A DNA stretch of 64,000 bases, taken from NCBI GenBank assembly GCA_041662665.1, contig JBAZSC010000003.1, forward strand, positions 76,333 through 140,332. The letters are read 5' to 3'. A program made the translations under genes and the position numbers. This DNA comes from Patescibacteria group bacterium (GTDB lineage Bacteria; Patescibacteriota; JABMPQ01; JAQVVF01). Below the pieces are notes generated by a model, which saw nothing but the letters and a program-made list of their open reading frames with translations, did no database searches and was not told the DNA's origin. Shown piece by piece: positions 1,303-59,983 of the stretch; within the stretch, counting starts at the first letter, position 1, and each line of letters begins with the position of its first letter.

Positions 1303-1353
1303 TCTACCTGGCTTTAGCCAAGGGGTCGTAGAGCTTTAGCTCTAGTTCGAAGG
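1303..1353 (+). repeat. Two-hairpin intergenic element, copy 1 (TCTACC-cctggc/ttta/gccaagg-GGT ... tagagc/ttta/gctcta)
   Basis: About 85% identical to 3437-3489; related copies at 34636, 57566 and 59907 have compensatory stem changes. Confidence 0.6.
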
Positions 1354-1426
1354 ATATTTGTAAATTAAGAAAAAAAATATAATTGATGTAATATTTTGTG
1401 CTCCTTATTTTTATCTGTGGATAACT

Positions 1427-1469
1427 TTCTTCTTCTTCTTCTTCTTCTTCTTCTTCTTCTTCTTCTTCT
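1427..1469 (+). repeat. (TTC)14 microsatellite directly upstream of an extended -10 element (TGgTATAAT) of the 1528 gene
   Basis: Perfect trinucleotide repeat of about 43 nt ending about 2 nt before 'tggttgTGgTATAATat'. Confidence 0.9.
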
Positions 1470-1470
1470 T

Positions 1471-1487
1471 TGGTTGTGGTATAATAT
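1471..1487 (+). promoter_or_regulatory. Putative extended -10 promoter (TGgTATAAT) for the 1528 surface-protein gene
   Basis: TGnTATAAT-like hexamer about 40 nt upstream of the ATG; no canonical -35 because the SSR occupies that position. Confidence 0.4.
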
Positions 1488-1527
1488 AATTAACTAAAAT
1501 TTTTTATACAATAATAAAATAAAAAAA

Positions 1528-3330
1528 ATGAAAAAATTAATCCGAAGAAACAGTTTAATGTTTTTAAGCGCTGTTTTTGTATTGGTACTTTCTTGCTTTG
1601 TTTTTTTGCAGAAAAATGTTCAGGCAGCAACTTGGCAGATTGAGACTGTGGATAATAGTTCGGATAATGTAGGTTCAGATAGTTCTTTGGCTTTGGATTC
1701 TTTTGGTAATCCAAGAATTAGTTATTTTGAAAATGAAAATAAAGCTCTTAAATATGCTTTTTGGAATGGATCTGCTTGGAATATACAAACGGTTGATGAT
1801 ACAGGTAGCGTTGGTCAATATACTTCTTTAGCATTAGATTCTTCTAACAATCCAAGGATTGCTTATCAAGATCTTTCGAATTATAGTCTCAAATACGCTT
1901 CTTGGAATGGCTCTGCTTGGGATATGCAGGCAGTTGATGAGACACATATTATTGCTCGCAGTATTTCTTTAGCATTGGATTCTTCTAACAATCCGAGAAT
2001 TAGTTATTATGATTGGTTTAATGATGATCTTAAATATGCTTCATGGGATGGTTTCGTGTGGGATATTCAGATAATTGATGTTGGTCAGCATCCTTCTCTA
2101 GCTCTAGATTCTTTTAATAACCCACATATTAGTTATTATGATGCTACTCTTGATGATCTCAAATATGCATCATGGAATGGATCTGCTTGGGTTATAGAGA
2201 CGATTGATTCAACAGGTGATGTTGGCGGAGATAATTCTTTAGCTTTGGATTCTTCTAATCACCCACATATTAGTTATTATGATGCTACTCTTGATGATCT
2301 CAAATATGAATCATGGAATGGATCTGCTTGGGTTATAGAGACGATTGATTCAACAGGTGATGTTGGCGGAGATAATTCTTTAGCTTTGGATTCTTCTAAT
2401 AACCCACATATTAGTTATTATGATGCTACTCTTGATGATCTTAAATATGCATCATGGAATGGATCTGCTTGGGTTATAGAAACAGTTGATTCAACAGGTG
2501 ATGTTGGCGGAGATAATTCTTTAGCTTTGGATTCTTCTAATAACCCACATATTAGTTATTATGATGCTACAAATGGTAATCTTAAATATGCTTTTGCTGA
2601 TGTTACTGCACCAATTACAACTGCAAGTCCAGCAGGTGGCATATATTCTTCAACACAATCAGTGGTATTAACAGCTGTTGATGATTCTGCATTTACAACA
2701 TATTATACAACTGACGGATCAGAGCCAACAACTTCTTCAACACAATATACTGTTCTAATTAGTATTTCTTCAGATACAACATTAAAATTCTTTTCCGTTG
2801 ATATTTATGGTAATGTTGAGAATGTAGAAACTGAAATTTATGAATTTGATCGTATTATTTTAACTTCAGAATTAAATAATCAAGCTGTCACTAGTTGTGG
2901 TTTAAAATTCAAGTTTAAGAAATTGCCTACAAAGTTAACTAAAGATAAAAAATACTGGATTAAATGTAAAAAGACTAAGAAGTATCCTAGAAAATGGCAG
3001 AATGCAAAAAAGACTGCCTTGAAGAAATATTGGAAGATAACTACTAATCTCAGAAAATACAAAGTTAAAAAATCTTCACAGAAATTTAAGATTAAAGTAG
3101 CTTTTAAGTATACTAAAGCAGAATTTAAGAAGTTGAGGAAAAGAAATAGATTGGCAAAAGAAAATAATTTGTTTTTGAAATTCAAGATTAAAAAAGGAAC
3201 TTGGAAATCATTATCTGATGTTTGGACTAATGCAAAGATCAAGCGTAATGTGAAAACGAATAGGTTCACTGTCACATATTTTACAAAGTTTCCTAAAAAG
3301 ATTTATTATTTTGGGATTGGATTGAAATAA
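1528..3330 (+). CDS. Secreted modular repeat protein: signal peptide, ~10 beta-propeller-type repeats (…SLALDSxNNPxISYYD…LKYASWNGSAW), chitobiase/beta-hexosaminidase C-terminal-like domain, lysine-rich C-terminal domain
   Basis: N-terminal hydrophobic signal; ~47-aa repeats; 'YYTTDGSEPTTSS…TLKFFSVDIYGN' CHB_HEX_C-like motif; about 160-aa tail with >30% Lys/Arg. Confidence 0.7.
   Translation: MKKLIRRNSLMFLSAVFVLVLSCFVFLQKNVQAATWQIETVDNSSDNVGSDSSLALDSFGNPRISYFENENKALKYAFWNGSAWNIQTVDDTGSVGQYTSLALDSSNNPRIAYQDLSNYSLKYASWNGSAWDMQAVDETHIIARSISLALDSSNNPRISYYDWFNDDLKYASWDGFVWDIQIIDVGQHPSLALDSFNNPHISYYDATLDDLKYASWNGSAWVIETIDSTGDVGGDNSLALDSSNHPHISYYDATLDDLKYESWNGSAWVIETIDSTGDVGGDNSLALDSSNNPHISYYDATLDDLKYASWNGSAWVIETVDSTGDVGGDNSLALDSSNNPHISYYDATNGNLKYAFADVTAPITTASPAGGIYSSTQSVVLTAVDDSAFTTYYTTDGSEPTTSSTQYTVLISISSDTTLKFFSVDIYGNVENVETEIYEFDRIILTSELNNQAVTSCGLKFKFKKLPTKLTKDKKYWIKCKKTKKYPRKWQNAKKTALKKYWKITTNLRKYKVKKSSQKFKIKVAFKYTKAEFKKLRKRNRLAKENNLFLKFKIKKGTWKSLSDVWTNAKIKRNVKTNRFTVTYFTKFPKKIYYFGIGLK
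2121..2575 (+). repeat. Intragenic 141-bp tandem repeat, about 3.2 near-identical copies (encodes 47-aa propeller repeats)
   Basis: Repeat starts at 2121, 2262, 2403 and 2544, giving a period of 141 bp; copies are almost identical at DNA level, unlike the upstream divergent repeats. Confidence 0.85.
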
Positions 3331-3407: not shown

Positions 3408-3431
3408 AAAACCCGTCGAGTGACGGGTTTT
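3408..3431 (+). terminator. Rho-independent terminator hairpin (aaaacccgtcgagtgacgggtttt)
   Basis: Inverted repeat plus T-run after the stop at 3330. Confidence 0.6.
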
Positions 3432-3436
3432 GTGAT

Positions 3437-3489
3437 TTCTACCTGGCTTCAGCCAAGTGGTCGGAAAACTTTAGTTTTTAGTTCGAGAG
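3437..3489 (+). repeat. Two-hairpin intergenic element, copy 2
   Basis: TCTACC-cctggc/ttca/gccaagt-GGT…aaaac/tttag/tttt; paralogous to 1303-1353. Confidence 0.6.
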
Positions 3490-3509
3490 ATATTTAGATA
3501 TTGGATATT

Positions 3510-3811: not shown

Positions 3812-4894
3812 ATGTTGCAAAATAAAGACGTAACCAAACTTAACCGCTTACAAAGTGATAAAGAAGATGTTGTGACAATTTATTTGAATTGCGATCAAAG
3901 AAGATACAAGCCAGAAGAAATAGAAGAAAAATTAAAAGATTTATTGAAAATTGTTGGAGAAAAATTAGGTGCTGAAGAAACAAAGAAAATTGAAGAATGG
4001 ATTGATTTAAGATTAGATAAAAAAGTTAAAGGCATGGCATTTTATGCTAGTCCGTCTAAAAATTTTTGGTCGATTTATAAATTTCCTTGTCCAATTAAAA
4101 CAGGAGCTTATGTTGAAAAGAATGTTCATATCGAACAATTATTGCAAGTCTTGGATGAATTAGAAAGGTATTGTGTTGTAGTTTGTGACAAGGAAAAAGC
4201 AAAAATATTTACAGTTTTTTTGGGTGTCATTCAAGATTTTAGTTATATTTTTGATGAGTTTCCAGGAAAGCATGATCAAGGTGGATTAGCGCAACAAAAT
4301 CAGGCTTCGCATACTGAAGAACATGTTCGTCAGCATTTGAAAAAAATTAATGAACAATTATTTAAGTTCTGGAAAGAAAAAGGATTTGATAGATTAATTC
4401 TAGCTGGATCAAAAGAGGTCTTGCCGGAATTAAAAAAAGTTTTGCATACGGAATTAAAAAATAGAGTAGTCGGTGAATTTTTTACAGAATTATTTAAGCC
4501 TAACGAACATTTTTTGGAGCAGTCTTTAGTAGTTCAAGAAAAAGTAGAAAGACAGAATGAAAAAAAATTAGTTGATGAATTAAATAACAGCTTGAACGGT
4601 CAATTAGCAGTTGCTGGTTTGAAAAAAGTTTTAGATGCAATTCAAGAAAGAGATATAAAAGCTTTATTAGTGGATTCTAAATTAAGTACAACCGGCAAGA
4701 AATGTCCAAATTGTGATTTTTTGGGATTGGATGAAGTTGTTTGTCCTTATTGCAGTTTTAAAACTGAAGATGTGAAAGATGTTGTTGATGAATTAGTTCA
4801 AAAAGCATATAGCCATCGCGCGAAAATAGAGTTTGTTGAAAATAATGAAGTATTAGCGGGAATGGGTGGGATTGGAGCGATGCTACGGTTCTAG
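3812..4894 (+). CDS. Bacterial eRF1/Pelota-superfamily protein (baeRF1-like) with inserted zinc ribbon
   Basis: C-terminal 'LAGMGGIGAMLRF' matches the Pelota/eRF1 domain-3 ending (…GGIAAILRY); three-domain length of about 360 aa; CPNC…CPYC zinc-ribbon insert; 'HDQGG' in the central domain. Confidence 0.55.
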   Translation: MLQNKDVTKLNRLQSDKEDVVTIYLNCDQRRYKPEEIEEKLKDLLKIVGEKLGAEETKKIEEWIDLRLDKKVKGMAFYASPSKNFWSIYKFPCPIKTGAYVEKNVHIEQLLQVLDELERYCVVVCDKEKAKIFTVFLGVIQDFSYIFDEFPGKHDQGGLAQQNQASHTEEHVRQHLKKINEQLFKFWKEKGFDRLILAGSKEVLPELKKVLHTELKNRVVGEFFTELFKPNEHFLEQSLVVQEKVERQNEKKLVDELNNSLNGQLAVAGLKKVLDAIQERDIKALLVDSKLSTTGKKCPNCDFLGLDEVVCPYCSFKTEDVKDVVDELVQKAYSHRAKIEFVENNEVLAGMGGIGAMLRF

Positions 4895-5000
4895 TACTAA
4901 AGTTATAAAGTTTTTAAAGTTCATAAAGTAAAATTGTTAATTGCTAAATTGTTAGAATTATTTAACAATGGAACAATGGAACAATAAAACAATTTCGACT

Positions 5001-5900
5001 ATGAAACCTATCGAGCAAGATAAATTATTATTTCCAGAAATTCTAGCTCCCAGACCAAAAGAAGCTCACAAAAAATCTGTTGGCAGTGTGATGATTGTTG
5101 CTGGATCTGATGGGATGTCTGGAGCAGCAACTTTATGTTCTGAAGCAACAATGCGTGCTGGAGCTGGAATTGTGCTTTTGGCATTTCCAAAAAGTTTGTC
5201 TGAAATTTATACAAAATTAATTCCAGAAGTTTTGACATTGCCTTGCGATGAGACAAAAGAAAAAACTTTGGCATTGTCATCTTTAGATAAAATTTTGGAA
5301 GAAGCAAAAAAATACGATGTGATTTTGATTGGTCCAGGATTATCTCAAAATAATGAAACAAGAAAATTGATTTGTGAATTGTTTAAAAATCTAAAAAATT
5401 TGCATAAAAATGTGGTTTTAGATGCTGATGGATTAAACGCTATTGCTGGTCAAATAGAATTATTAGAAAAATTAGGTGATAACAAAACTATTTTATTGCC
5501 TCATGCTGGTGAGATGGCGAGATTAACAAATAAAGATGTTGATAATATTCAAAGAGATCGAGAATGGCTAGTTAGAAAAAAGGCAAAAGAATGGAAATGT
5601 GTTTTAGTGATAAAAGGTTATGAAACAGTTATTTCTGATGGTGAAAGAGTAATAATTAATAAATCTGGCGGACCGGAATTAGCAACTGCTGGAACTGGCG
5701 ATGCTTTGGCGGGCATGGTCGCTGCTCACTTTGCAGGAAATGTTAATCTGCCTTTTGAAGCAACTGCAACTGCTGTATATTTGCATGGTTTGGCTGGAGA
5801 TATGGTTAGCAAAAAGTTAGGTGAACGTTCTGTTTTGGCGACTGATGTGATAAATATGTTGCCTGAGGTAATAAAGAAAGTGTTAAATAAGTTAGACTAG
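5001..5900 (+). CDS. nnrD: ADP-dependent NAD(P)H-hydrate dehydratase (YjeF C-terminal / Nnr2 family)
   Basis: GSVMIVAGSDGMSGAA…GPGL…DADGLN…GGPELATAGTGDALAGMVAA motifs. The start is placed at an internal ATG (MKPIEQ) because the upstream part of the ORF overlaps an AACAATGG repeat array. Confidence 0.75.
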   Translation: MKPIEQDKLLFPEILAPRPKEAHKKSVGSVMIVAGSDGMSGAATLCSEATMRAGAGIVLLAFPKSLSEIYTKLIPEVLTLPCDETKEKTLALSSLDKILEEAKKYDVILIGPGLSQNNETRKLICELFKNLKNLHKNVVLDADGLNAIAGQIELLEKLGDNKTILLPHAGEMARLTNKDVDNIQRDREWLVRKKAKEWKCVLVIKGYETVISDGERVIINKSGGPELATAGTGDALAGMVAAHFAGNVNLPFEATATAVYLHGLAGDMVSKKLGERSVLATDVINMLPEVIKKVLNKLD

Positions 5901-5947
5901 TTAGATTGGTTAGACTTGTTATTAGTTAAATTGCTAAATTGTTAAAC
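5891..5947 (+). repeat. 9-bp-period GTTAGAYNN tandem array followed by an 8-bp ATTGYTAA array in the 3' intergenic region
   Basis: gttagacta gttagattg gttagactt gtta… attgctaa attgttaa. Confidence 0.7.
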
Positions 5948-5989
5948 TATTTTTTTGTTTCAATGTTTTAGTGTTTAAGTGTTTCTGTA

Positions 5990-7423: not shown

Positions 7424-7572
7424 AATGCGATAATATAAATGCGAGTTAAATAGATTAGACTGATTTGATAAAAAATAAAATTAATAAAATGTTTGATTGC
7501 TAGATTGTTGAATTGTTAAATTGTTAATAATTTAACAATGAAATAATTTAATAATTTATTGTAAATAATAAA

Positions 7573-12711: not shown

Positions 12712-13093
12712 AACTTAAAACTTTAAAAATCGTTGACCTGGAAAAAGTAAGTTAGTTATTTTTAAAAGTCTGCTTTCGCTAAAGCTACAGCAGACGAAGC
12801 GAATAAGGGATAGTGAGAGCCTTATAAAAATACTAGCTGAAAATGGATCCAGCGAGATGATAAGTTAAATACTTATCCGGTTGCCTCCGTAACCATAGGC
12901 TAACTGATATCTTGAATCCACCTTTGCTAAAGCTTCGGTGGACAAAGGAGTCAGTAAGTGATCAGTGTTTTTGCACTGATAAACAAGGTGGTAACACGGG
13001 AAGACTTCTCGTCCTTGAATACTTTTTAGAAGTATTTTAGGATGAGAAGTTTTTTGTTATGATCGATCTTTCACAACGCAAGGAGGAGAGAAG
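12712..13093 (+). promoter_or_regulatory. About 380-nt structured 5' leader of the RPH-like gene, containing two copies of the CCGCC-hairpin element and several other stem-loops
   Basis: Promoter TTGACT-N17/18-TATAAT at 12677-12708. Hairpins at 12769-12801, 12858-12882 and 12916-12950; a weak terminator-like hairpin at 13018-13040; SD AAGGAGGAG at 13080. Confidence 0.45.
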
Positions 13094-15619
13094 ATGAAAG
13101 TTCTATACCTGAGAAATCTGATGGGTTTGGAAGTGTCGCAGATTGGTGGCAAAGCATTTAATTTGGGCAAGTTAATTATGGCTGGATTTAATGTACCAAG
13201 TAGAGGTTTTGTGTTAGATGTGGATGTTTTGGACAGTTGGCCAAGTGGACGTGAAGAAGTAGCAGATTTTTTTGTAGATTATTTTGGTGGACAAGTCGTA
13301 GCTGTGAGAAGTTCAGCAGTAGCAGAAGATTCTGGATCAGCTTCTTTTGCTGGTCAGTACAAAACTACCTTGCATGTTAGGACTAGGGAAGAATTTTTGC
13401 GAGCAGTTGATGATTTCGTTGCTGGTTTGCTTGATGATGGCATTCAAGCATATCAGACAGTAGTTAAGCAGAAAGATTCAGGTCGACGGCAGGCAGCTTT
13501 GATTGTTCAGGAAATGGTTGAAGCAGAAATTGCTGGTGTGCTTTTTACGGTTAACCCACTCGATGGTTTGGACGAGATGATGATTACAGCAGCTTCTGGT
13601 ATTGGTGAGGCATTGGTATCTGGTCAGGTGACTGGAGATACATATGTTGTTGATAGAGATGGGATGCTCAAAAAGATGGTTATCGGCGGTGTAAAAAAAG
13701 ATTTGCGAGATGGTGTTGGCTTGATGACAAATAGAGATGTTGCTGAGAGAATTTTGGATGATAGTTTGCTGATGTATTTAGTAAAAATTGGCAAGCGGGT
13801 TGAAGAACTATTCCAATGTCCGCAAGATATCGAATGGGCAATTGTTGGTTCGCAGATTTTTTTGCTGCAAGCTCGACCAATTACGGCAATGTCTACTTTG
13901 GGTTTGCAGCGTCAAAAAGTTATTGATGATCTTGGAAATTCTTTTGAAAAAGAGAGAGCGAGATTGGAAGAGTTAGGTGTTGTATTGGCAACTGATTGTT
14001 TTTCTGATCAAAATATTGCTGAGCTTTTGACTCGTCATCCTACGCCAATGGCTTTTGGAGCATTCTGTTATATTTTTGCTGATGGCGAAGCTGGAATCCG
14101 GCTTGGTCGCAATCAAATGGGTTATGAGATTGGGTCAGAACTTGATCATGGTTTTTTCAGATTAGTTGGTGGTCAACCTCGTTGTAGTATTGTTCATGAT
14201 GCTTTTACTTATCGGATTGCTGGAATTCCGTTGTCGGATTATGCGATTTTGGTGAGATATTATTTGGAGAAAATTGCTGAAGATTCTAAAATGGCAAATT
14301 ATCCAGAAGTAGTGCTCTATAAGCAAGATCCGAGTTTGGAATTTCTGACAGAATTGTTTGGAGCAGAAAAAGCACAGTTCTATCGAGTGGCTTTTGATCG
14401 ATTTTTTACTGGATTAGCAGTGTTGATTGAGCAAACGGTGTTGGAGATGAAGACATTCGAAGATGATTTTAGGGCTTATATTGCAAGAGAGAAAGTCAAG
14501 ATGGAAAGTTTGGACATGAATCTTCAAGCTAATATTGCTCTATGCATGGAAATGTTTGATCATCTGCGAACTGTTGCTTGTGTGATGTTTGTTAAAGTTG
14601 CACGTTTGGGATTTTTTGCTTATGCACGACTTCGAGAAAAAATGGCATTGCATTATGGTAAAGAAAAGGGCGAGCAGTTGTTAGCAACATTAACTAGTGG
14701 ATTGGATAATGATCCGTCTTTGCATTTCAATGTTTGTTTGGCACAGTATCGTGATGGTCAAATCACTTTTTCTGAACTTTTGGAAAGATATGGTCATTTG
14801 GGTGCGAATGAACTAGAGGTTTCAGGATTGCGTTATCATGAAGATTCAAGTTTGTTGGAGCGTTACGCAGAACAGATTGCTGGAGATCCTCGTGTTGAAT
14901 TGGCACGCAGAAAGGCAGAATGTGATAAGGTTCGTGCAACTGTGGCAACGGAATTGGGAGAAGAAGTGGCTAGCTGGGTTGAGGTAGCGCGACAGTATTT
15001 GGCTGGTAGAGAATTAATCAAATATCTTTATTTGATGGAATATGATTTAGTTCGGCAAATGTTACTTAGAATCGAAAAGATTTTACATTGGGAAGATGAT
15101 TTGGTCTTCTGTCTTTATCCAGGAGAGATTCCAATGTTGCAATATGATAGCGAACGTATCCATAGAAAAGCAGTTGCGCGTTTGCAGCGTAGGCGTGAGC
15201 AAATGAATATCTATGTTCCGCCAGTAATTTTCTCTGATGATTTGGAGAGGATCGGTCAATCTCCATATCAAGCATCTGATAAGATTTTGACTGGCTTTGG
15301 AGTGACAGATCAGGTGGTGACTGGAGAGGTAGTTAAAGTGGCTGATCCAAGGGATAGAAAACAAATTGCCAAGCTTTTTGCAGGTTGTGTTCTAGTGACA
15401 ATGACAACTGATCCTTCTTGGGCCCCATTGATTGCAGCGATTGGTAGTAACGGTGGTTTGGTGACTGAGATTGGAGGTCCTTTGGCGCATGGGGCAATTG
15501 TAGCTAGAGAATTGGGAATTGGCGCTGTCTTGGATGTTACTGGAGCAATGCAGATTTTGCAGGATGGAATGAGAGTAGAGGTTAATGGTCCTTTGGGAGT
15601 TGTGAAGATTTTGGATTGA
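13094..15619 (+). CDS. PEP-utilising-enzyme family protein with PPDK-N ATP-grasp domain and C-terminal swivelling His domain (rifampin-phosphotransferase / PEP-synthase-like)
   Basis: N-terminus 'QIGGKAFNLGKL…GFNVPSRGFVL'; C-terminus 'LVTEIGGPLAHGAIVARELGIGAVL' (PEP-utilisers mobile-domain His); no PEP-binding TIM barrel; about 840 aa like the Rph family. Confidence 0.7.
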   Translation: MKVLYLRNLMGLEVSQIGGKAFNLGKLIMAGFNVPSRGFVLDVDVLDSWPSGREEVADFFVDYFGGQVVAVRSSAVAEDSGSASFAGQYKTTLHVRTREEFLRAVDDFVAGLLDDGIQAYQTVVKQKDSGRRQAALIVQEMVEAEIAGVLFTVNPLDGLDEMMITAASGIGEALVSGQVTGDTYVVDRDGMLKKMVIGGVKKDLRDGVGLMTNRDVAERILDDSLLMYLVKIGKRVEELFQCPQDIEWAIVGSQIFLLQARPITAMSTLGLQRQKVIDDLGNSFEKERARLEELGVVLATDCFSDQNIAELLTRHPTPMAFGAFCYIFADGEAGIRLGRNQMGYEIGSELDHGFFRLVGGQPRCSIVHDAFTYRIAGIPLSDYAILVRYYLEKIAEDSKMANYPEVVLYKQDPSLEFLTELFGAEKAQFYRVAFDRFFTGLAVLIEQTVLEMKTFEDDFRAYIAREKVKMESLDMNLQANIALCMEMFDHLRTVACVMFVKVARLGFFAYARLREKMALHYGKEKGEQLLATLTSGLDNDPSLHFNVCLAQYRDGQITFSELLERYGHLGANELEVSGLRYHEDSSLLERYAEQIAGDPRVELARRKAECDKVRATVATELGEEVASWVEVARQYLAGRELIKYLYLMEYDLVRQMLLRIEKILHWEDDLVFCLYPGEIPMLQYDSERIHRKAVARLQRRREQMNIYVPPVIFSDDLERIGQSPYQASDKILTGFGVTDQVVTGEVVKVADPRDRKQIAKLFAGCVLVTMTTDPSWAPLIAAIGSNGGLVTEIGGPLAHGAIVARELGIGAVLDVTGAMQILQDGMRVEVNGPLGVVKILD

Positions 15620-19110: not shown

Positions 19111-19821
19111 ATGCATAATATTTTAACAATTGCGAAAAAAGAATTAAGATCATATTTTCTATCATCGATTGCTTATGTAGTATTTGCAATGTTTTTGCTT
19201 TTGGCAGGATATTTTTTCACAGTAATTTTGCTATATACTCAAGAAGCTTCATTACAAGGAGCAGCTTATAATATTGTAATTACTTTATTATTTTTGATTC
19301 CATTATTAACAATGAAATCATTTGCTGAAGAAAGACGACAAGGTACATTGGAATTGTTGATGACAAAACCAGTAACTGATTTAGAAGTTGCATTAGGCAA
19401 GTTCTTTGCAGCAGCAGGAATGTATTTGATAATGTTGTTATCAACAGTTGTGTACGTATTTATTTTAATTAAATATGGTAATCCTGATATGGGTCCAATT
19501 TATTCTGCCTATATTGGTTTGATTTTGGTTGGATTTGCTTTTATTGCTTTAGGAGTTTTTGCTTCAACTTTGACTGAAAATCAAATTGTTGCTGCAGTAA
19601 TTGGCTTTGCAATGATTTTATTATTATGGGTTTTGTCTTGGGCTTCTTCTCAATTTACAGGAAATATGGCTGAAATTATTTCGTATTTATCTTTATCTGG
19701 GCATTATGATAATTTCGTAAAAGGCGTTATTGATTTGAAGGACGTAGTTTACTATTTGAGTTTTATTATTTTCTGGTTGTTTGTAACTGTAAAATCAATT
19801 GAGGTTAGACGATGGAAGTAA
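19111..19821 (+). CDS. ABC-2 type transporter permease (GldF-like)
   Basis: Six predicted TM helices; positioned after the ATPase. Confidence 0.65.
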   Translation: MHNILTIAKKELRSYFLSSIAYVVFAMFLLLAGYFFTVILLYTQEASLQGAAYNIVITLLFLIPLLTMKSFAEERRQGTLELLMTKPVTDLEVALGKFFAAAGMYLIMLLSTVVYVFILIKYGNPDMGPIYSAYIGLILVGFAFIALGVFASTLTENQIVAAVIGFAMILLLWVLSWASSQFTGNMAEIISYLSLSGHYDNFVKGVIDLKDVVYYLSFIIFWLFVTVKSIEVRRWK

Positions 19822-19868
19822 ATAAGTTCTAAAGTTTATAAAGTTATAAAGTTCATAAAGTAAATATA

Positions 19869-34688: not shown

Positions 34689-34714
34689 TTTGTGATAAAA
34701 TAAAAAATAAATAA

Positions 34715-38516: not shown

Positions 38517-38545
38517 AAATTGTGGTTTTGAAGGTGAGTTAAATA

Positions 38546-38605
38546 GGTTAGATAAGTTAGACTGGTTAGATTTGTTAACGCTAACTAGTTTAACTTATCT
38601 AACTA
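38546..38605 (+). repeat. GTTAGAYNN 9-bp array forming an inverted repeat (ggttagataagttagactgg … ctagtttaacttatctaac)
   Basis: Tandem heptamer cores plus a 19-nt palindromic arm. Confidence 0.6.
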
Positions 38606-40264: not shown

Positions 40265-40267
40265 ATT

Positions 40268-40345
40268 AGTTAGATTTGTTAGACTGGTTAGATAAGTTAG
40301 GCTAGTTAAACGATTGTAAAATTGATAAAATTGATAAAATTCTTA
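40268..40345 (+). repeat. GTTAGAYNN (five copies) then AATTGATAA arrays
   Basis: gttagattt gttagactg gttagataa gttaggcta gttaaac … attgtaaa attgataa aattgataa. Confidence 0.65.
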
Positions 40346-41150: not shown

Positions 41151-41221
41151 CTTGCGAAAAGCTTGATATTCGGATATTATGATATTAAGCGGAAAGTTGT
41201 TTTTGTGTTTTTAGTGTTTAA

Positions 41222-42721
41222 GTGTTCGAGTGTTTTATGACAATAGAAGATCTAAAAAAGAAAAATATTCATGTCTTAGGCGTTTCTGGAGCTGAAGGAA
41301 GCGCGGTTTTGGAATTTTTGGCTGATAATGGAGTTAAAAATATTACTGCTCATGATTTTTGCGATCAAGATAAATTTAAAGAAAGTTTTTTTTCTTTTCA
41401 TGACAAAATGACAAAAAAAGAAAAAGAAGAAACATATAATGAGATTATCCGCCTTCGCCAAGGCTCCGGCGGACAAGGAAAGGTTAAGTTTAATTATAAA
41501 GATACTTATCTTGACCAAATTGAAAAGGCAGATTTGATTTTTGTGCCTCAATCTTGGTTTAGATATGCGCAAAATGATTTATTGAACCAGCATAAAGGAA
41601 AAATCGAATTTTCTAATATTACAAAATTATATTTTCAATTTTGCAAAGGCAAAATAATTGCAATAACTGGAACATCTGGAAAATCAACGACTTCAGCATT
41701 AGTAAATGATATAATGAAGCGAGGATATAAATTAGGCAAGGTCTATTTTACTGGCAATGATCGTGAGAATGTACAGATTCTAAAAAATATTTTTGAAATT
41801 AAAGAAAATGATATTTTAGTTGTTGAAGTAAGCAACAGGCAATTAATGATTGATTTGAAAAAAAGTCCGTATATTGGCATTATTACGAATATCTCGCCGA
41901 ATCACATGGATGATCATAAGACTTTTACTGATTATATTACAACAAAGAGAAGTTTGATCAGATATCAAAAAAAAGGTGATTTTGCAATTTTGAATTTTGA
42001 TAATGATATTACAAAGGATATTGGCTTAGATATTGATTCAACAGTTTATTATTTTTCTAGAAAAGGCAGAGTTGATCGAGGCGCTTATGTAAAATTCAAT
42101 GAAATAATAATTCAAGATTTTGAAAGAGAAAGAAAAATTTGTTCAGTTTTGGATTTAAAAATTCCTGGACCACATAACATTGAAAATGCTTTGGCAGCAA
42201 GTTTGGCTGGATATTTGATGAAAATTAATACGAAAGATATCAGAGAAGCATTGTTAAATTTTAAGGGTATAAAATCGAGATTAGAATTAGTAAGAGAAGT
42301 TGATGGCGTTTCATATATTGAAGATTCTTCAGCTTGCAATCCTGATGGGACTGCTGTTGCTGTTTCATCATTTAAAAAACCAATGATTTTAATTGCTGGA
42401 GGATCAAGGAAAAAACCATATCCAGGAGAATTCGATAGAATGGCTGATTCAATAATAAATTCAAAAGTAAAAATTGTTTTTTTGATTGGAGAGAGAGCAG
42501 AAACAATTAAATTAGCTTTAAAAAATTCGAGTATAAGATTTCAAAAAACTAGTCCAATAATTAAAATATCTGAAAATTTGGAGGATGCAGTTATTTCTGC
42601 CAATAAATCAGCAAAAAGAGGTGATATCGTAATTTTATCGCCTGGTTGTGAAAGCTTTGGTCTCTTTATTGATTATCGCGATCGAGCGAGACAGTTTAAA
42701 AAATTAGTGAAAAGTTTATAA
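41222..42721 (+). CDS. murD: UDP-N-acetylmuramoylalanine--D-glutamate ligase carrying an in-frame CCGCC-hairpin element insertion
   Basis: 'HVLGVSGAEGSA', 'GTSGKSTT' Mur-ligase motifs; element at 41447-41482 encodes 'RLRQGSGGQGKV'. Confidence 0.75.
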   Translation: MFECFMTIEDLKKKNIHVLGVSGAEGSAVLEFLADNGVKNITAHDFCDQDKFKESFFSFHDKMTKKEKEETYNEIIRLRQGSGGQGKVKFNYKDTYLDQIEKADLIFVPQSWFRYAQNDLLNQHKGKIEFSNITKLYFQFCKGKIIAITGTSGKSTTSALVNDIMKRGYKLGKVYFTGNDRENVQILKNIFEIKENDILVVEVSNRQLMIDLKKSPYIGIITNISPNHMDDHKTFTDYITTKRSLIRYQKKGDFAILNFDNDITKDIGLDIDSTVYYFSRKGRVDRGAYVKFNEIIIQDFERERKICSVLDLKIPGPHNIENALAASLAGYLMKINTKDIREALLNFKGIKSRLELVREVDGVSYIEDSSACNPDGTAVAVSSFKKPMILIAGGSRKKPYPGEFDRMADSIINSKVKIVFLIGERAETIKLALKNSSIRFQKTSPIIKISENLEDAVISANKSAKRGDIVILSPGCESFGLFIDYRDRARQFKKLVKSL

Positions 42722-48143: not shown

Positions 48144-49751
48144 ATGAAAATACTTTTAGCAGGCGGAGGAACAGGTGGGCATATTATGCCTATTTTGGCT
48201 GTAGTAAAGCAAATTGTAAGATTAAATCTCGAAGCCCAATTTTTGTGGATTGGAACAAAAAAAGGTCCGGAAGCCAAAATTGCACGTGAGAATAAAATTG
48301 AATTTAAAGCTGTCTTAGCTGGAAAAATGAGACGGTATGTTTCGTTTTGGAATTTTGTTGATATGGTTAAATTGCCTCTTGGTGTTGTACAAGCTTATTT
48401 TAAAGTAAAAAAATTCAAGCCTGATGTTTGTTTCAGCAAAGGCGGATATGTCAGTGTGCCAACTGTTATAGTTTGCAATCATTTTAAAATTCCAGTTTTG
48501 TTGCATGAATCAGATGTGATTGCTGGCAAGGCAAATTTGTTTATGGCAAAATATGCAAGTAAAATTGCATTAGGATTTGAAGAAGGAAAAAATAGTTTTA
48601 AAGATTTTTCTGACAAAATAATCATTACAGGCAATCCTGTTCGCGAGGAAATTTTATTAGCAAAAAAAGAAGATGGCATTAAAGATTTAAATTTAAATAA
48701 TAAAAAACCTGTATTATTAATAATTGGTGGAAGCCAAGGAGCGCAAAAAATTAATGATTTGATTGGCTTAGTTCTCCATAAATTATTAGAAAAATGGCAG
48801 ATTATTCATGTTGTTGGGCCATCACATGGCAATCAGATTTTAGGTAATGTAAAAGCATTAGAAAATGATTATCATATATTCCAATTTTTGGATGGCAAGA
48901 AAATGGGCGAGGCATTGTCAGTTTCTGATTTAATTATTTCTCGAGCTGGAGCAAATAGCTTGGCTGAAATTTCAGCATTAGGCAAGCCAGCAATTTTGAT
49001 TCCTTATCCTTTTGCATCATCTGATCATCAAAAAGCTAATGCAGAAATTTATGCAAAAAATAATGCAGCTGTAATTATAAACGAAAAAGATTTGACTTCA
49101 GAAAAATTATTGACTGATATAACAAGTTTGCAAGCTGATAAAGAAAAATTAGAAACAATGCATTTGGCAATGCTTAAGATGTTCAATAAAGATGCAAATA
49201 ATAAATTAGCAACTGAAATTTTAGGTCTAGCAAAATCAAAAAATGTTTTTGCAAAGAAAAATAAAAAAATATTAGTATTTGTTGAAGGTACGATTTTGAT
49301 GCACAAAAAAGGTTTAGGCGAAAGTCAAGAAAAAATTGTTTTGCAAGTTAAAAATAATGAGCCATCTGTGAAAGACTTTGCTAATTATATTATGATTGGT
49401 CACGCAAATGAAAAGCTAAAAAAATGGCAAGAACAAGGTGCAAAAATTTTATATTTAACTTCAAGAATTTCAATGGATGAAGTGTCGCAGATTGGCGAGG
49501 TTTTGGCAAAAAATAATTTTCCAGAAGGTGATTTATATTATCGAAAAGAAAATCAAAAATATAATAATATTATAGAATATGTAAAGCCTGATATTTTGAT
49601 TGAAGATGATTGTGAGAGTAACGGAGGTCAGAAAGAGATGGCGATTACATTAGTTAAGCCAGAAATAAAGAATAGTATTAAGTCAATTGTTGTTAAAGAA
49701 TTTCAGGGAATTGATAGTTTGTCGGACGATGTTAAATTGTTGAATGGTTAA
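48144..49751 (+). CDS. murG: MurG glycosyltransferase fused to a ~170-aa C-terminal extension domain
   Basis: GT28 motifs (GGGTGGH, 'IGGSQGA'); typical MurG is about 360 aa but this ORF is 535 aa; TTGACT-N17-TATATT promoter ends 6 nt before the ATG. Confidence 0.8.
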   Translation: MKILLAGGGTGGHIMPILAVVKQIVRLNLEAQFLWIGTKKGPEAKIARENKIEFKAVLAGKMRRYVSFWNFVDMVKLPLGVVQAYFKVKKFKPDVCFSKGGYVSVPTVIVCNHFKIPVLLHESDVIAGKANLFMAKYASKIALGFEEGKNSFKDFSDKIIITGNPVREEILLAKKEDGIKDLNLNNKKPVLLIIGGSQGAQKINDLIGLVLHKLLEKWQIIHVVGPSHGNQILGNVKALENDYHIFQFLDGKKMGEALSVSDLIISRAGANSLAEISALGKPAILIPYPFASSDHQKANAEIYAKNNAAVIINEKDLTSEKLLTDITSLQADKEKLETMHLAMLKMFNKDANNKLATEILGLAKSKNVFAKKNKKILVFVEGTILMHKKGLGESQEKIVLQVKNNEPSVKDFANYIMIGHANEKLKKWQEQGAKILYLTSRISMDEVSQIGEVLAKNNFPEGDLYYRKENQKYNNIIEYVKPDILIEDDCESNGGQKEMAITLVKPEIKNSIKSIVVKEFQGIDSLSDDVKLLNG

Positions 49752-49823
49752 ATTGTTGCTAAACTGTTAGTTTTTAAAATTTGGGAAATAAAAAAATCCA
49801 CATTAGTAGTGGATGAAAATGAA

Positions 49824-54184: not shown

Positions 54185-54200
54185 ATGTTGCATTAAATAA

Positions 54201-54265
54201 GTTAGATTAGTTAGATAGGTTAGACTGGTTATTTATAAATTGTTCAATTGTTAAATTGTTAATAT
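54201..54265 (+). repeat. GTTAGATNN array followed by ATTGTTAA array
   Basis: gttagatta gttagatag gttagactg gtta … attgttca attgttaa attgttaa. Confidence 0.65.
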
Positions 54266-54654: not shown

Positions 54655-54775
54655 TTGAGAATTTAGAATTTAGAATCTGGAATCTAGAATAGAATAGAGA
54701 ATTTGGAATAAAATAATTCTCATTTTACTTTCTAATTCTATTCAAAATTCTAGATTCAAGATTCTAGATTCTTAA
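54655..54775 (+). repeat. About 120-bp imperfect palindrome of 7-bp AATYTAG units (tagaatctggaatctagaatagaatag … ctattcaaaattctagattcaagattctagattc)
   Basis: Inverted arrays directly upstream of the secA ATG. Confidence 0.6.
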
Positions 54776-54779
54776 TTTT

Positions 54780-57536
54780 ATGGCATTTGATTTTTTTAAA
54801 AAAATATTTGGTGATCCAAATAAACGAGTTGTTGATCAGCTCGCTCCAATAGTTTCGCAAATTAATTCTTTGGAATCAGGTTTGAAAGATTTGTCAGCTG
54901 AAGAATTAAAATCTAGAACAAAAAAATTAAAAGATGAATTAAAAAATGGCAAGACTTTAGACGATATTTTGCCTGAGGCTTTTGCTTTAGTTCGAGAGGC
55001 TTCCAGAAGAACGACAAAAATGAGACATTTTGATGTTCAGCTTTTGGGTGGAATTGTTCTTCATCAAGGAAAAATATCAGAAATGAAAACTGGTGAAGGA
55101 AAAACTTTGGTGGCAACATTGCCATTATATTTGAATGCATTGTCAGGCAAAGGCTCTCATTTAATTACTGTTAATGATTATTTGGCAAGAAGAGATACAG
55201 TATGGATGGGGCAGATTTATGATGCTCTTGGATTAAGTGTTGGTTGTATTCAGCATGAACAGGCTTTTGTTTACGATTCTCAATATAGCAAAAAGAATAA
55301 TGAATCAGGAATAATGAATAATGAAGAACTTGATGAAGAAAGAGATGAAATGGGAAGTTTTAAAGTATTCCATGAATATCTAAGACCAGTTTCTAGAAAA
55401 GAAGCATATAATGCTGATATTACTTACGGAACAAATAATGAATATGGTTTTGATTATTTGAAAGATAATATGGTTGCAGAGCTTGCTGAAAAAGTTCAAA
55501 GAAATTTGAATTTTGCAATTGTTGATGAAGTTGACTCTATTTTGATTGATGAAGCAAGAACTCCGTTGATTATTTCTGCTCCAGCAGAAGAAGCAGTTGA
55601 TATGTATAATCAATTTGCAAGCTTGATTCCAAAATTAAAAGAAAATGAAGATTACAATATTGATGAAAAAATGCGGGCAGCAACTTTGACAGATAAAGGA
55701 ATCGCAAAGCTTGAAAAAATGTTGGGATTGCAGAATATTTATGAAGAAAAAGGAATAGAAATTGTCCATCATATTGAACAAGCTTTGAAAGCGCATACTT
55801 TGTTTAAAAGAGACAAAGATTATGTTGTAAAAAATAATGAAGTAATAATTGTTGATGAATTTACTGGCAGATTAATGCCTGGCCGTAGATTTTCTGAAGG
55901 TTTGCATCAAGCGTTGGAAGCAAAAGAAAACGTGGCGATTCAGCGAGAATCAAGAACATTAGCAACAATTACATTTCAAAATTATTTTAGAATTTATAAA
56001 AAATTAGCTGGCATGACTGGAACTGCGGCAACATCAGCTGAAGAATTTTCAAAAGTTTATAAATTGGATGTTGTTATAATTCCAACCAATAAACCATTAA
56101 TACGTGAGGATTTAAATGATTTGGTTTATAAATCAGAATTAGGAAAATATATTGCTGTAGTTAAAGATGTAAAAGAAAGAAATAAAAAAGGTCAGCCAGT
56201 TTTGATTGGTACGATTTCAATTGAAAAAAATGAGAGATTAGGACAAATGTTGCAAGACGAAGGAATTATATGCAATGTTTTAAATGCAAAGAACCATGAA
56301 AAAGAAGGCGAGATAATTGCTCAAGCTGGTAGATTAAATGGCGTGACAGTTGCAACAAACATGGCAGGTCGCGGTGTTGATATTATTTTGGGTGGAGTGC
56401 CTTTGAATAAAGAAGAAGCAGAAAAAATTAAACAATTAGGTGGTCTTCATGTTATTGGAACAGAAAGGCATGAAGCAAGAAGAATAGATAATCAGCTTCG
56501 AGGTAGAGCTGGACGTCAAGGCGATCCTGGTTCTTCACAATTTTTTGTGTCAATGGAAGATGATTTGATGAGAATTTTTGGTTCTGACAGAATGAAAAAA
56601 ATGATGGATACTTTGAAATTGCCAGAAGATCAGCCAATTGAACATGGATTAATCTCAAAATCAATTGAAGCAGCTCAAAATAAAGTTGAAGGAAATAATT
56701 ATGATATTAGAAAACATGTTTTGGAATATGATGATGTGATGAATAAACATCGGGAAGTCATTTATAAAAAGCGTAATGCGATACTTGATGCTTGGGAACG
56801 AGAAAAAAGGGAAATAGGAAACAGAAAACAGGAAACAGGAAAAGAAATGCAAACTTTGAAAAGTATTATTTTAGAATATATTGAAGATGAAATTGAGCAA
56901 ATTGTAACAAATCATACTGGTACAGAAGATGTTGAGAATTGGAATTGTGAAGAAATTTATGAATCTGTAAAAACTATTTTTCCAGTATCGCAAGATATTC
57001 ATCTTGAATTGGAAAATTTAGCAAAAAAAGCTGGCAATGAAAAAAATGGAGCTGAAGCAAGAACGATAATTATTGATTATCTTTTTGATTTGGCAAGGAA
57101 AGCTTATGATGCGAAAGAAAAAGAAAATGGTGAGGAAGGAATGAGGCAAATCGAAAGAGCTGTTTTGCTTCGAACTATTGATTCTTTGTGGATGGATCAT
57201 TTGGATGCAATGGAATATATGAGAGAGGGAATTGGCTTGCGAGGTTTTGGACAAAGAGATCCATTAGTTGAATATAAAAAAGAAGCATTTGGAATGTTTG
57301 GTGCTTTGTTGGCAGAAATTCAAAATAGAGTTGTTTATACTATTTATAAAGTTGGAATTGTGACACAACAAGTATCGCCAATGCAAAAAGCAAAACAACA
57401 AATGCAAACTTCAGGCGCGGAAAAAGGTGAAGATTCTAAAACTTTGCCAGAGCACTCTAGCAAAATTGGAAGAAATGATCCGTGTATTTGTGGAAGTGGG
57501 AAAAAATACAAGCACTGTTGCGGAAAAAACAAATAG
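54780..57536 (+). CDS. secA: Preprotein translocase ATPase SecA (with C-terminal zinc-binding tail)
   Basis: DEAD-like motor motifs, 'MAGRGVDI', C-terminal [14 protein letters not shown]; contains the low-complexity insert at 56815-56844. Confidence 0.95.
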
Positions 57537-57565
57537 AAATTCGGAAATTATGAAATTCGGAAATT

Positions 57566-57660
57566 TCTACCCAACTTCAGTTGGGGTTAGGTGAACTTTA
57601 GTTCACGGACGACGAAAAACTAAAGTTTTTTTGACCCCAACTGAAGTTGGGTAGGGTACT
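57566..57660 (+). repeat. MITE-like inverted-pair version of the two-hairpin element (ctacccaacttcagttggggt … accccaactgaagttgggtag); likely also the secA terminator
   Basis: 21-nt perfect terminal inverted repeats flanking gtgaac/ttta/gttcac and an A/T run. Confidence 0.65.
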
Positions 57661-57697
57661 CTAAAAATCAAAATAAAAAAACGAACGTGGAAGTTCG

Positions 57698-58039
57698 TTA
57701 TGCGGAAAGTGCTTTGAAGACAATTCTTGCGTAGTAAGAGCAGACGATTGTAGGTGGAATATCATCTGTGCCATCATTTTTTGTAATTCTGCTATATCTT
57801 TCAAGCTGAACAGTAAAATGATTGAAGGGTGGACTGGAAAGTAAATCATTTGCTGTAGATTGGACCAGATTGCTACATTTTTCTATTCCTCTATCAGATC
57901 GTTCCATAAAACAGATTTCTGCAACTACTCGATTATTTGCAGAACAATTCTTAGCGTGGTTGGCAATTTTTGCAGCAGTTTCCATGATACGCCAAATAGG
58001 CATACCTTCGCAAACAATATAAGTTTTTTCCTCTTGCAT
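57698..58039 (-). CDS. Hypothetical protein (113 aa), high-GC strong-SD orphan
   Basis: AAGGAGGAGAAAAAG upstream of the minus-strand ATG at 58039. Confidence 0.4.
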   Translation of the reverse strand: MQEEKTYIVCEGMPIWRIMETAAKIANHAKNCSANNRVVAEICFMERSDRGIEKCSNLVQSTANDLLSSPPFNHFTVQLERYSRITKNDGTDDIPPTIVCSYYARIVFKALSA

Positions 58040-58155
58040 TTTTCTTTTTCTCCTCCTTGTTGTCCTCTTTCGAGGAAGGTGCGAATAATTTAGTATATTA
58101 TTTTATTACGAAAAGACAAGAGATTTTAAAAATCTAAACAACAAAATTAATATTT

Positions 58156-59874
58156 ATGTCAATACATGATCGGATATTGCGGATATTAGATATTCGGATA
58201 TTAGGTGGTTTGATTTTGGTTGTTTTTTTGTTTTCTTGTTTCTTTGTTTTGAATGCAAATGCGTCCAACTACATTCAGCCAGAAATAAAAGTTTATTCTG
58301 ATTATGGAGATAAAATAGATGCTGATTTTTTGGCATTTGACAAGAATTTTAAAGGCGGAGCATATCCAGCAATTGGCGATATTAATAATGATGGAAAAGA
58401 TGAAATTGTGATTGGCGCTGGATATGGTGGCGGGCCGCAAGTTAGAATTTTTGATAAATTGGGAAATTCAACTGGCATTAATTTCTATGCATTTGAAAAA
58501 GAATATACTTCAGGTGTTGATGTTGCTGTTTGTAATTTAGATAATAAAGGTAGAAATGAAATTGTTGTTGGCAAAGCACTTGAAGATAGAAGCGATATTG
58601 CAATCTATAAAATTAGTAAAAAAAATAAAATTAATAAGCTGACTTCTTTTACGGCTTATGATGAAAGTTTTGAAGGTGGAGTGAATATTTCATGTTCGGA
58701 TTTAAACAATGATAAAAGAGATGAAATTGTTACTTCACCTGGACCTTCTGGTCGTAGTCATATCAGAACTTTTAAATATTTGGCAAAGAAAAAAGAAGTT
58801 GTTGATTTTGGATTATCTTTTTTTGCATTCAATGACGATTTTGAAGGCGGAGCAACTGTCAGTGCTTATAATGGCAAAATAATTGTTGGACAAGCGACAG
58901 GAGGAAATTTGGTTTATGTCTATGAAGTGAATCGCAAAGATGTAAGAAAGTTTTCAAAATTAGGAATGCTTGATAAGTTAGCGCCGAAATTTGTTAGAAA
59001 AATTAATGCATTTAAAAATTTTAAAGGAGGAGTTAATGTTTCAATTGGAAAATTGGATTCTGGCAAGGCAAAAATTTTGGTATCGCCAGCTTCTAATGGC
59101 GGTCCAACAATTCAAATTTTTAATTTAAAAGGAAAGCTATTAAAAAATTTTAGCGCCTATTCAGGTGATTTTAAAGGCGGCGTAAGAATTGCGAATCTCA
59201 CGAATGGCAAGCCCACAAATAACTCAAATGATAAACAGAAGGATTATGATTTTGTTGTTGCTCCAGGATTTAAATTGGGAATTAAATGTGAAAGAAATTG
59301 CGTGGCTTTAACTCTTGATGACGGCTATACTTCAGCAAGTGGATCGTTCGATCGAATTTTGGATACATTAAAATATAAAAAAGTTCATGCGACATTTTTT
59401 ATGCTAGGTACTGTAATGCAACAATATCCAGACAGGATGAAAAGATTAAGTGATGAAGGGCATCAACTAGCAAATCATAGTTTTTCACACGCTGATTTTA
59501 CAAGATTATCAAGCGCACAAATTATTAATGAAATTACTTATACTAATCAAATAGGTGAAAGTATAACTGGCAAGCCGACAAAACCTTATTTTCGTTATCC
59601 TGGTGGCAGTCATAATGCTTCAACTGATGCAATTGTAAAAAATTTAGGTTATAAGTATTTTGGATGGACAGCATCTGCAGGAGATACAGGATCAAATGTT
59701 ACAGTACAATCAGCAACCTTTGGCATGCTTTGGAATTTGCATGATGGTTCAATAATTCTGGGACACACAATGAAAGATGCAACTGCAGGAGCTTTGCCAA
59801 CTGTTATTGATGCAATCAGAAATGCTGGATTTACATTAGCGACTCTTGATGAAATGAGTTCATATTGGAAATGA
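58156..59874 (+). CDS. Secreted FG-GAP-repeat protein with C-terminal NodB-type polysaccharide deacetylase (CE4) domain
   Basis: N-terminal TM/signal; 'GDINNDGKDEIV' FG-GAP repeats; CE4 motifs 'LTLDDGY', 'HATFFMLG', 'GHQLANHSFSH'. Confidence 0.7.
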   Translation: MSIHDRILRILDIRILGGLILVVFLFSCFFVLNANASNYIQPEIKVYSDYGDKIDADFLAFDKNFKGGAYPAIGDINNDGKDEIVIGAGYGGGPQVRIFDKLGNSTGINFYAFEKEYTSGVDVAVCNLDNKGRNEIVVGKALEDRSDIAIYKISKKNKINKLTSFTAYDESFEGGVNISCSDLNNDKRDEIVTSPGPSGRSHIRTFKYLAKKKEVVDFGLSFFAFNDDFEGGATVSAYNGKIIVGQATGGNLVYVYEVNRKDVRKFSKLGMLDKLAPKFVRKINAFKNFKGGVNVSIGKLDSGKAKILVSPASNGGPTIQIFNLKGKLLKNFSAYSGDFKGGVRIANLTNGKPTNNSNDKQKDYDFVVAPGFKLGIKCERNCVALTLDDGYTSASGSFDRILDTLKYKKVHATFFMLGTVMQQYPDRMKRLSDEGHQLANHSFSHADFTRLSSAQIINEITYTNQIGESITGKPTKPYFRYPGGSHNASTDAIVKNLGYKYFGWTASAGDTGSNVTVQSATFGMLWNLHDGSIILGHTMKDATAGALPTVIDAIRNAGFTLATLDEMSSYWK

Positions 59875-59906
59875 GAAATGGGATATGGGAAGTGAGAAAA
59901 TAGATA

Positions 59907-59983
59907 TTCTACCCTGCCCATGGCAGGGGTACGTGAATTTTTTGTAGTAACTTTTAAAAACCCTTGCCGTGGGCAAGGTAGAA
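59907..59983 (+). repeat. Inverted-pair two-hairpin element (tctaccctgcccatggcagggg … cccttgccgtgggcaaggtaga)
   Basis: Terminal inverted repeats of about 22 nt, each itself a hairpin. Confidence 0.6.

Follow-up and report, generated by a model that had tools for sequence, protein, structure and literature searches.

A 64,000-nucleotide stretch of a Patescibacteria genome (assembly GCA_041662665.1, contig JBAZSC010000003.1, positions 76,333 to 140,332; hereafter the window) carries, downstream of several of its genes, short structured repeats that very probably belong to a Patescibacteria family of repetitive extragenic palindromic (REP)-like units and of doublets resembling REP doublets forming hairpins (REPINs) and bacterial interspersed mosaic elements (BIMEs), with a HUH/Y1 tyrosine transposase of the REP-associated tyrosine transposase (RAYT) type as the cognate enzyme. 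It is the partner that sets this frame: the gene found with the units on other contigs encodes a HUH/Y1 protein of RAYT type and is flanked by units, which therefore places the repeats with the REP, BIME and REPIN elements. The copies in the window are non-autonomous. A preliminary description, made from the sequence alone, had likened them to miniature inverted-repeat transposable elements (MITEs); its notion of a family of short structured non-autonomous repeats in solo and inverted-pair forms holds, and copies do vary between related genomes, but 'MITE-like' is right only loosely, in the sense of a short non-autonomous repeat.

The window comes from a metagenome-assembled genome (MAG) of the Patescibacteria, or Candidate Phyla Radiation (CPR), with about 32% G+C and genes nearly all on the plus strand. 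Relatives of its SecA protein are encoded in Patescibacteria MAGs throughout, the nearest being those of the comparison loci L001 (89% identity), L002 (84%) and L003 (74%). All comparison loci are MAG fragments of 20 kb or less, and two sets of them were searched: 1.29 Mb around secA from 80 relatives (L001–L080), and 76 metagenome contigs (509 kb) selected by an exact-pattern scan for the conserved parts of the unit. Two covariance models were used, R1, trained on the five window units, and R2, trained on metagenome units alone with the window copies excluded.

R1 found 141 further units at E < 0.01 in the 509 kb of pattern-selected contigs. In the window it matched its own training units and no others, and in the SecA-relative DNA it matched one solo (L002) and one inverted pair (L009), the stems of which are new, yet complementary. 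R2, which had seen none of the window copies, recovered the full units there at 62.9, 56.7, 46.5, 37.4 and 37.4 bits (E 3e-13 to 1e-6), followed by two degenerate arms at 19.3 and 17.7 bits (E 0.04 and 0.11), with nothing else scoring over the 64 kb; in the 1.29 Mb of other Patescibacteria DNA it matched 3 units only, those of L002 and L009. The family is therefore real, specific and patchily distributed. An exact search for the head pattern in the SecA-relative loci gave L009 and chance-like matches only, and the family pattern had 0 matches in viral contigs. On contigs longer than 8 kb there is about 1 further site per 20 kb beyond the seeded site, and the window, with 5 sites in 64 kb, is similar.

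The consensus unit consists of TTCTACC, hairpin 1, GGGTT and hairpin 2, with a length of about 55–60 nt; in the window it reads (T)TTCTACC, a 5–7-bp hairpin, GGGT(T), a few bases and a second hairpin of 5–6 bp closed by C-TTTA-G. Both loops of the unit are C-TTTA-G, spaced about 22 nt apart. All five sites of the preliminary description are present, at or within a few bases of where it had placed them and far above chance, although several details differ. Copy 1 is a solo unit at 1300–1362 on the plus strand (R1 81.8 bits; R2 62.9 bits, E 3e-13), with its head TTCTACC at 1302–1308, hairpin 1 CCTGGC-TTTA-GCC(A)AGG at 1307–1323, hairpin 2 TAGAGC-TTTA-GCTCTA at 1329–1344 and the tail GTTCGAAGGATATTT. 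Copy 2, a solo at 3435–3498 on the plus strand (R2 46.5 bits, E 5e-9), is 87% identical to copy 1 across 39 nt, and its hairpin 2 is AAAAC-TTTA-GTTTT. The first stem of these two copies had been given as cctggc/gccagg, where the actual pairing is CCTGGC/GCCAAGG with a bulged A. Copy 3 (34635–34696, plus strand; R2 37.4 bits, E 1e-6), again a solo, begins 1 nt past the stop codon of the D-Ala-D-Ala ligase gene (33525–34634); its hairpins are CCCAAC/GTTGGG and AGAAC-TTTA-GTTCT, and its degenerate head, TTAGGACC, is the exception to the TCTACC that the other copies indeed share.

The two remaining copies are doublets with outward-facing heads, extending over both strands. Copy 4, a REPIN-like inverted pair at 57563–57658 (R2 56.7 and 37.4 bits), has a left arm at 57563–57613 (plus strand; hairpin 2 GTGAAC/GTTCAC) and a right arm at 57608–57658 (minus strand; hairpin 2 AAAAAC/GTTTTT), lies 27 nt downstream of the secA stop codon and folds at −59.6 kcal/mol (z −10.8). 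Its 37-nt arms are 86% complementary and end in a perfect 21-nt terminal inverted repeat, as had been described. Such perfection had been ascribed to copy 5 (59905–59985; fold z −6.9; the arms that R2 scores at 19.3 and 17.7 bits) as well, where 3 of 23 positions differ between the arms, 2 of them compensatory inside the hairpin of their own arm. The arms of this degenerate doublet read TTCTACC-hairpin 1-GGGT, with stems CCCTGCC/GGCAGGG and CCTTGCC/GGCAAGG, loops CAT and CAC, and a 29-nt spacer; the second TTTA hairpin, thought to be common to all five copies, is found in copies 1–4 and is lacking here. Beside copy 4 lies an orphan open reading frame (ORF) of 113 aa (57698–58039, minus strand) with its own terminator-like hairpin (57680–57699, minus strand). 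Its sole match among 5.8 billion proteins is itself, the NCBI hypothetical protein WC663_05175, and the possibility that it is a decayed RAYT was rejected, as the alignment shows no kinship and there are no family matches.

The covariation proposed for the stems is confirmed on a far larger sample. In the 141-unit alignment, 90.4% of cells form standard pairs, against 66.4% after shuffling and at most 54% with the partner slid; 389 cells are changed on both sides, and hairpin 2 is paired in 97%. The alignment was fitted to the model, but the complementarity is nonetheless plain in the raw sequences. The unpaired positions are near-invariant (TTCTA and the first C, 97–100%; loop T-T-A, 86–100%; GG-T-T, 79–99%). 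The conserved parts are the head, the linker and the loops; stem sequences can change at will provided that they pair. Two other structured elements were considered and set aside. A tRNA-like reading was suggested by a GTTCGA segment, which showed no T-arm pairing by eye, and ARAGORN reported three real tRNAs only. An integron attC site was rejected because it suits one stem subfamily only, the R''/R' cores (RYYYAAC...GTTRRRY) being resembled, by eye, by the CCCAAC-stem copies alone; the neighbours of the window copies are moreover housekeeping genes (secA, ddl and ppiC), in contrast to attC cassette ORFs.

On the metagenome contigs the elements are nearly always intergenic. Among the two-unit clusters, 41 of 43 have the TTCTACC heads outermost ('+-'), with one '-+' and one '++' cluster; besides these, 47 units stand alone as solos, and a small number of arrays reach up to 7 units. 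The median length across distinct doublets is 103 nt, and their arms are systematically unlike. In a large group of contigs, one arm has the hairpin 2 TGAAGC/GCTTCA and the tail AGCGYTTTYAAA, and the other has CTAAAC/GTTTAG or CGATAC/GTATCG and the tail CGAGTTTTYAAA; in L009 and L121 even hairpin 1 differs between the arms. The arms are thus heterologous, so that four local hairpins are maintained rather than one long palindrome. The solos, which had been described as half-elements, are not simply halves of a perfect palindrome, for the two arms of each pair are consistently different, in the manner of a left and a right end. At one doublet in L009 (5250–5590), a Nudix hydrolase ORF ends right after its EETG motif, at the point of truncation, and further downstream lie first a perfect palindrome about 50 nt long and then a second Nudix gene, which is intact.

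The doublets could also be taken for classical cut-and-paste MITEs, mobilised in trans by a DDE transposase, as their terminal inverted repeats, small size and intergenic location might suggest. Target-site duplications were sought at 39 distinct doublets, where flanking direct repeats of 2, 3, 4, 5 and 6 nt occur in 3, 3, 2, 0 and 0 cases; repeats of at least 5 nt thus flank none of the pairs, and shorter ones are at chance level. There is no flanking target motif beyond A/T richness. Each arm contains palindromes of its own, which evolve through compensatory changes, and the only gene found between inverted units is of the HUH/Y1 and not of the DDE type. The target-site test refutes this explanation, to which we attach next to no credence.

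In four unit-bearing loci (L103, L092, L095 and L110), an ORF of about 190 aa lies exactly between a '+' and a '-' unit. For an independent test, five further loci were fetched through the protein alone (L157 and L159–L162), and all five carry R2 units on both sides, the '+' unit just upstream and the '-' unit where the gene ends or shortly beyond, which brings the genes bracketed by inverted units to nine independent loci. A tblastn search found further homologues beside units in L115 and L100, where bracketing is partial. In L159 (10529–10589) and L092 (1097–1147), the RAYT gene runs at its 3' end into the downstream REP unit, such that hairpin 1 encodes the last residues of the protein (…LAKAR and …SAKAG, respectively), and the L159 gene takes its stop codon, TAG, from the terminal GGTAGAA.

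The best match of all four unit-found ORFs is the NCBIfam model NF047646, 'REP-associated tyrosine transposase' (E 1e-10 to 4e-7), and three of the four match Pfam Y1_Tnp ('Transposase IS200 like') at 25.6–29.1 bits, above the cut-off of 23. The conserved motifs of the clade are NHYH (the HUH motif), WQ and GYI[AV]GNLLKH, which holds the catalytic tyrosine. An AlphaFold2 model (predicted local distance difference test 87.6) has as its top Foldseek match 4ER8 (E 2e-8 over 149 columns), the E. coli REP-associated tyrosine transposase with a bound REP hairpin, with the IS608, ISDra2 and IS200 transposases behind it at about 2e-5. A database search returned 168 clusters, and those that are named derive from MAGs of Patescibacteria, Parcubacteria and Paceibacterota; at JGI some of the homologues bear the label 'REP element-mobilizing transposase RayT'. 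The clade is compact: of 1.84 billion cluster representatives, a profile built from it retrieves 298 at E <= 1e-3. L105 (7322–7738) holds a second RAYT-like ORF of more canonical type, with NHYH and YIHHNPVKH motifs and 31% identity to the 190-aa clade; it is not bracketed, though two doublets of the repeat family lie on that contig.

One could instead regard the Y1 gene and its flanking units as an ordinary selfish insertion sequence (IS) of the IS200/IS605 type, and the doublets as its deletion derivatives, similar to the palindrome-associated transposable elements (PATEs) that are the MITEs of that family, rather than as a domesticated single-copy RAYT with its REPINs. In favour of this, Pfam names the protein after IS200; IS608 and ISDra2 likewise have the Y1 HUH fold, lack target-site duplications and bear subterminal hairpins whose unpaired bases are conserved; and the block of unit, gene and unit is compact, at about 700 nt, with doublets that resemble it without the gene. 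The block is also present in L110 and absent from the orthologous site of L094, which holds a 177-bp remnant with a single 'double-foot' hairpin. However, the NCBIfam RAYT model is far ahead of the IS200 model (E 1e-10 against 6e-4), the best structural match is TnpA-REP and not IS608 or ISDra2, and the flanking units are inverted, whereas IS200/IS605 ends are direct hairpins on the same strand (PMC6006769). The shorter transposases of that family are also multi-copy; each protein cluster here was seen on few contigs (1–10), and the protein stands nearer to RAYTs. We therefore consider a plain insertion sequence unlikely, while keeping it as the foremost alternative to a RAYT with REP-like units.

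Comparison of relatives reveals turnover of the elements. A 600-bp segment of the window (57524–58124), comprising copy 4 and the ORF at 57698–58039, has a counterpart of 15 bp in L001; copy 5 is absent from the orthologous site in both L001 and L002. Conversely, the site of the L002 unit is occupied in the window by an 18-nt spacer, and in L001, too, the unit is missing. L107 and L112 are 98.5% identical, yet where L107 has a doublet L112 has unrelated sequence. Another MITE-like insertion, distinct from this family and 152 nt long, was noticed in L125 (6409–6561), with terminal inverted repeats GGGCCTGCTGATTT and AAATCAGCAGACCC and TATTTA on both sides; it is missing from the 99.5%-identical contig L145.

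These presence–absence differences between near-identical strains also count against a further explanation, namely that the host selects the units as structured RNA elements (hairpins at 3' ends, terminators, stabilisers or a protein-binding motif) and that their association with a transposase is incidental. The strong compensatory changes alongside conserved unpaired bases would suit such a role, as would the very stable predicted RNA folds, the position of the units in short intergenic spacers, often between co-directional genes, and the influence of E. coli REPs on mRNA stability and termination that has been reported (PMC6006769). However, solos have the same and the opposite orientation relative to flanking co-directional genes in about equal numbers (roughly 50:50), which rules out a strand-specific RNA motif reading TTCTACC, and the nine independent RAYT genes bracketed by units are hard to regard as incidental. 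No Rfam family covers the elements at gathering score; at relaxed thresholds, spurious long-hairpin microRNA-precursor models alone appeared, far below their gathering scores. We judge this explanation to be quite improbable.

The terminator or insulator function that had been suggested finds no support either, and the even split in the orientation of the solos counts against it as well. The units carry no T-run, and the combination expected of an intrinsic terminator, a G+C-rich hairpin with a T-run oriented along the upstream gene, was not seen in them. They do lie downstream of genes, although not 'directly after' the stop codons as first described, the distance in the window ranging from 1 to 105 nt. 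Terminator-type hairpins precede copies 1 and 2 as separate structures, not members of the family: one at 1273–1297 on the plus strand (AAAATCCGTC-TGAAT-GACGGATTTT, flanked by an A-run and a T-run), between the PpiC-type gene (139–1236) and copy 1, and one with a T-run at 3408–3431 on the plus strand, directly 5' of copy 2. A terminator scan flagged these hairpins and, among the elements, only the degenerate arms of copy 5. As a general feature, a terminator hairpin directly 5' of the head was dismissed (6 of 143 units against 14 of 1,280 random positions).

Assignment to a REP–RAYT system is, however, not without difficulties, and the following observations weigh against it. The L095 protein has no Pfam match at E 0.01, and the clade is, on its sequence, divergent, its proteins scoring 30–42 bits with the NCBIfam model and so not reaching the equivalog cut-off of 80 bits. 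A sequence profile of the clade had no significant match in the PDB and did not reach 4ER8, which is why a fold comparison was needed. By tblastn there is no RAYT gene in the 64-kb window or in L001–L080, and thus none beside the window copies or in the loci of the closest relatives, L001–L003. No clean empty site for copies 4 and 5 was found in L001 or L002, where the insertion boundaries are not definable because the flanking intergenic DNA is too diverged. The conserved tag, CTAC 5' of hairpin 1, has a polarity opposite to that of the canonical REP, in which a conserved GT[AG]G lies 5' to the hairpin foot (PMC6006769); because the head TTCTACC precedes hairpin 1, the other strand has GTAG on the 3' side of the hairpin. 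Finally, transposition alone leaves the high degree of pairing within single copies unexplained, and either selection acting on every copy or a templated correction of palindromes is needed to account for it.

Known relatives of the enzyme offer a model for how the REP-like units and the RAYT-type protein could work together. By analogy with IS608 TnpA and E. coli TnpA-REP (PMC6006769; PDB 4ER8 and 2VJV), the enzyme would bind the hairpins of the unit on single-stranded DNA, would read the conserved unpaired bases of head, linker and loops, and would cut and rejoin near the head, so that doublets might be moved or amplified into intergenic DNA without target-site duplication. If the stems need only pair, this would explain the compensatory variation between copy lineages. 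The outward geometry that brackets the RAYT gene is the same as that of the doublet, so the doublet looks like the transposase unit minus its gene, and solos and forms with hairpin 1 only look like decay products. An effect on transcript 3' ends, of the kind reported for E. coli REPs, is possible.

A more specific proposal, about which we are evenly divided, is that the family represents an undescribed Patescibacteria RAYT subclass. Its members would be proteins of about 190 aa with NHYH, WQ and YI[AV]GNLLKH motifs, and its cognate REP a two-hairpin unit with fixed C-TTTA-G loops and a reversed 5' CTAC tag, spread as heterodimeric doublets of about 103 nt at tens of sites per Mb, with hairpins kept paired copy by copy through host-level use or an unusual correction of palindromes. 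The tyrosine motif of the Patescibacteria RAYTs fits no signature in the table of subclasses given by Quentin et al.

Other features of the window were noticed in passing. Many of its intergenic spacers, mostly just 5' of genes, consist of short tandem repeats with a period of 8–9 nt, of the types GTTAGAYNN, TTGTTAAA, AAAGTTNNT, TTTAGTGTT and AATTTAGAAT, the same types recurring at distant sites; relatives have similar spacers with other repeat words. They form five groups, the first at 5883–5923, 31208–31266, 38539–38588, 40252–40310, 54193–54233 and 60030–60070, the second at 7488–7537, 49728–49761 and 54231–54264, the third at 4893–4932 and 19817–19873, the fourth at 5950–5987, 32262–32299 and 41201–41238, and the fifth at 54660–54777. 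A T-box leader (12724–13019; 99.8 bits, gathering score 93) lies upstream of an 841-aa ORF (13094–15619). The gene at 3812–4894, which adjoins the genes for tRNA-Thr and tRNA-Gly, encodes a protein with a baeRF family 10 domain (bacterial archaeo-eukaryotic release-factor-like) and eRF1 domains 2 and 3. Two large ORFs (1528–3330 and 43906–46860) consist of tandemly repeated segments, of 141 nt (47 aa) and 138 nt (46 aa), respectively, whose copies are 60–79% identical, and the first also has a chitobiase/Fn3-associated domain.

To our knowledge, work on REP/REPIN–RAYT systems has dealt almost exclusively with Proteobacteria, apart from a few cases in Cyanobacteria and Bacteroidetes, and in the full-text literature we found no paper linking RAYT, REPIN or REP with Patescibacteria, Parcubacteria or CPR. 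The genomes of Patescibacteria are ultra-small and streamlined, at about 1 Mb; mobile DNA is generally scarce in them, and they are assumed to have little tolerance of repeats. The family described here would extend REP/REPIN–RAYT systems to the CPR. It comes with a clean definition of the unit in sequence and structure and with a small partner enzyme that has a confident structural model, and the recognition rules are therefore directly testable; with its defined target in single-stranded DNA, the enzyme could be a candidate for use as a HUH tag. In addition, MAGs could be annotated for these repeats with a covariance model of the unit, which would also point out places where assemblies are likely to break and supply markers of strain-level turnover.

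Among known systems, the E. coli 'REPtron' of REP/BIME elements and TnpA-REP (PDB 4ER8; PMC3479197; PMC6006769) is alike in its HUH/Y1 protein, the top structural match; in a gene bracketed by inverted palindromic units and the lack of target-site duplications; and in the occurrence of intergenic solos, inverted pairs and arrays, including pairs of two unit types, as with the Y and Z REPs of BIMEs. It differs in having one hairpin per unit, where the Patescibacteria unit has two with identical C-TTTA-G loops, in its 5' GT[AG]G in place of a CTAC tag 5' of the hairpin, and in a YIxxNP tyrosine motif in place of YI[AV]GNLLKH, a divergence also seen in the NCBIfam scores below the equivalog cut-off; the host, too, is different, here being Patescibacteria.

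The REPINs of Pseudomonas fluorescens SBW25 and its relatives (PMC3116915; PMC3337134) share the predominant form, a doublet of about 100 nt made of inverted units around a short spacer, as well as singletons that resemble decayed doublets and the association with a RAYT. Their arms are near-identical and form one long hairpin, whereas here hairpin 2, and in L009 and L121 hairpin 1, is heterologous. Also among the closest systems are the TIRtrons with their TIRYT genes and the double-palindromic terminal inverted repeats (TIRs) of P. putida and P. fluorescens (Di Nocera et al. 2013, PMC3733652), which form moderately abundant dispersed families of dimers or clusters, heterodimers being common. 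TIRtrons have been reported from Proteobacteria and Acidobacteria, not from Patescibacteria, and have other sequences, such as the GGGGWSAS motif (PMC3733652). Compared with these closest known systems, the Patescibacteria family is set apart by heterodimeric doublets being the rule, along with its two-hairpin units with identical loops, the reversed tag, the tyrosine motif and the host phylum.

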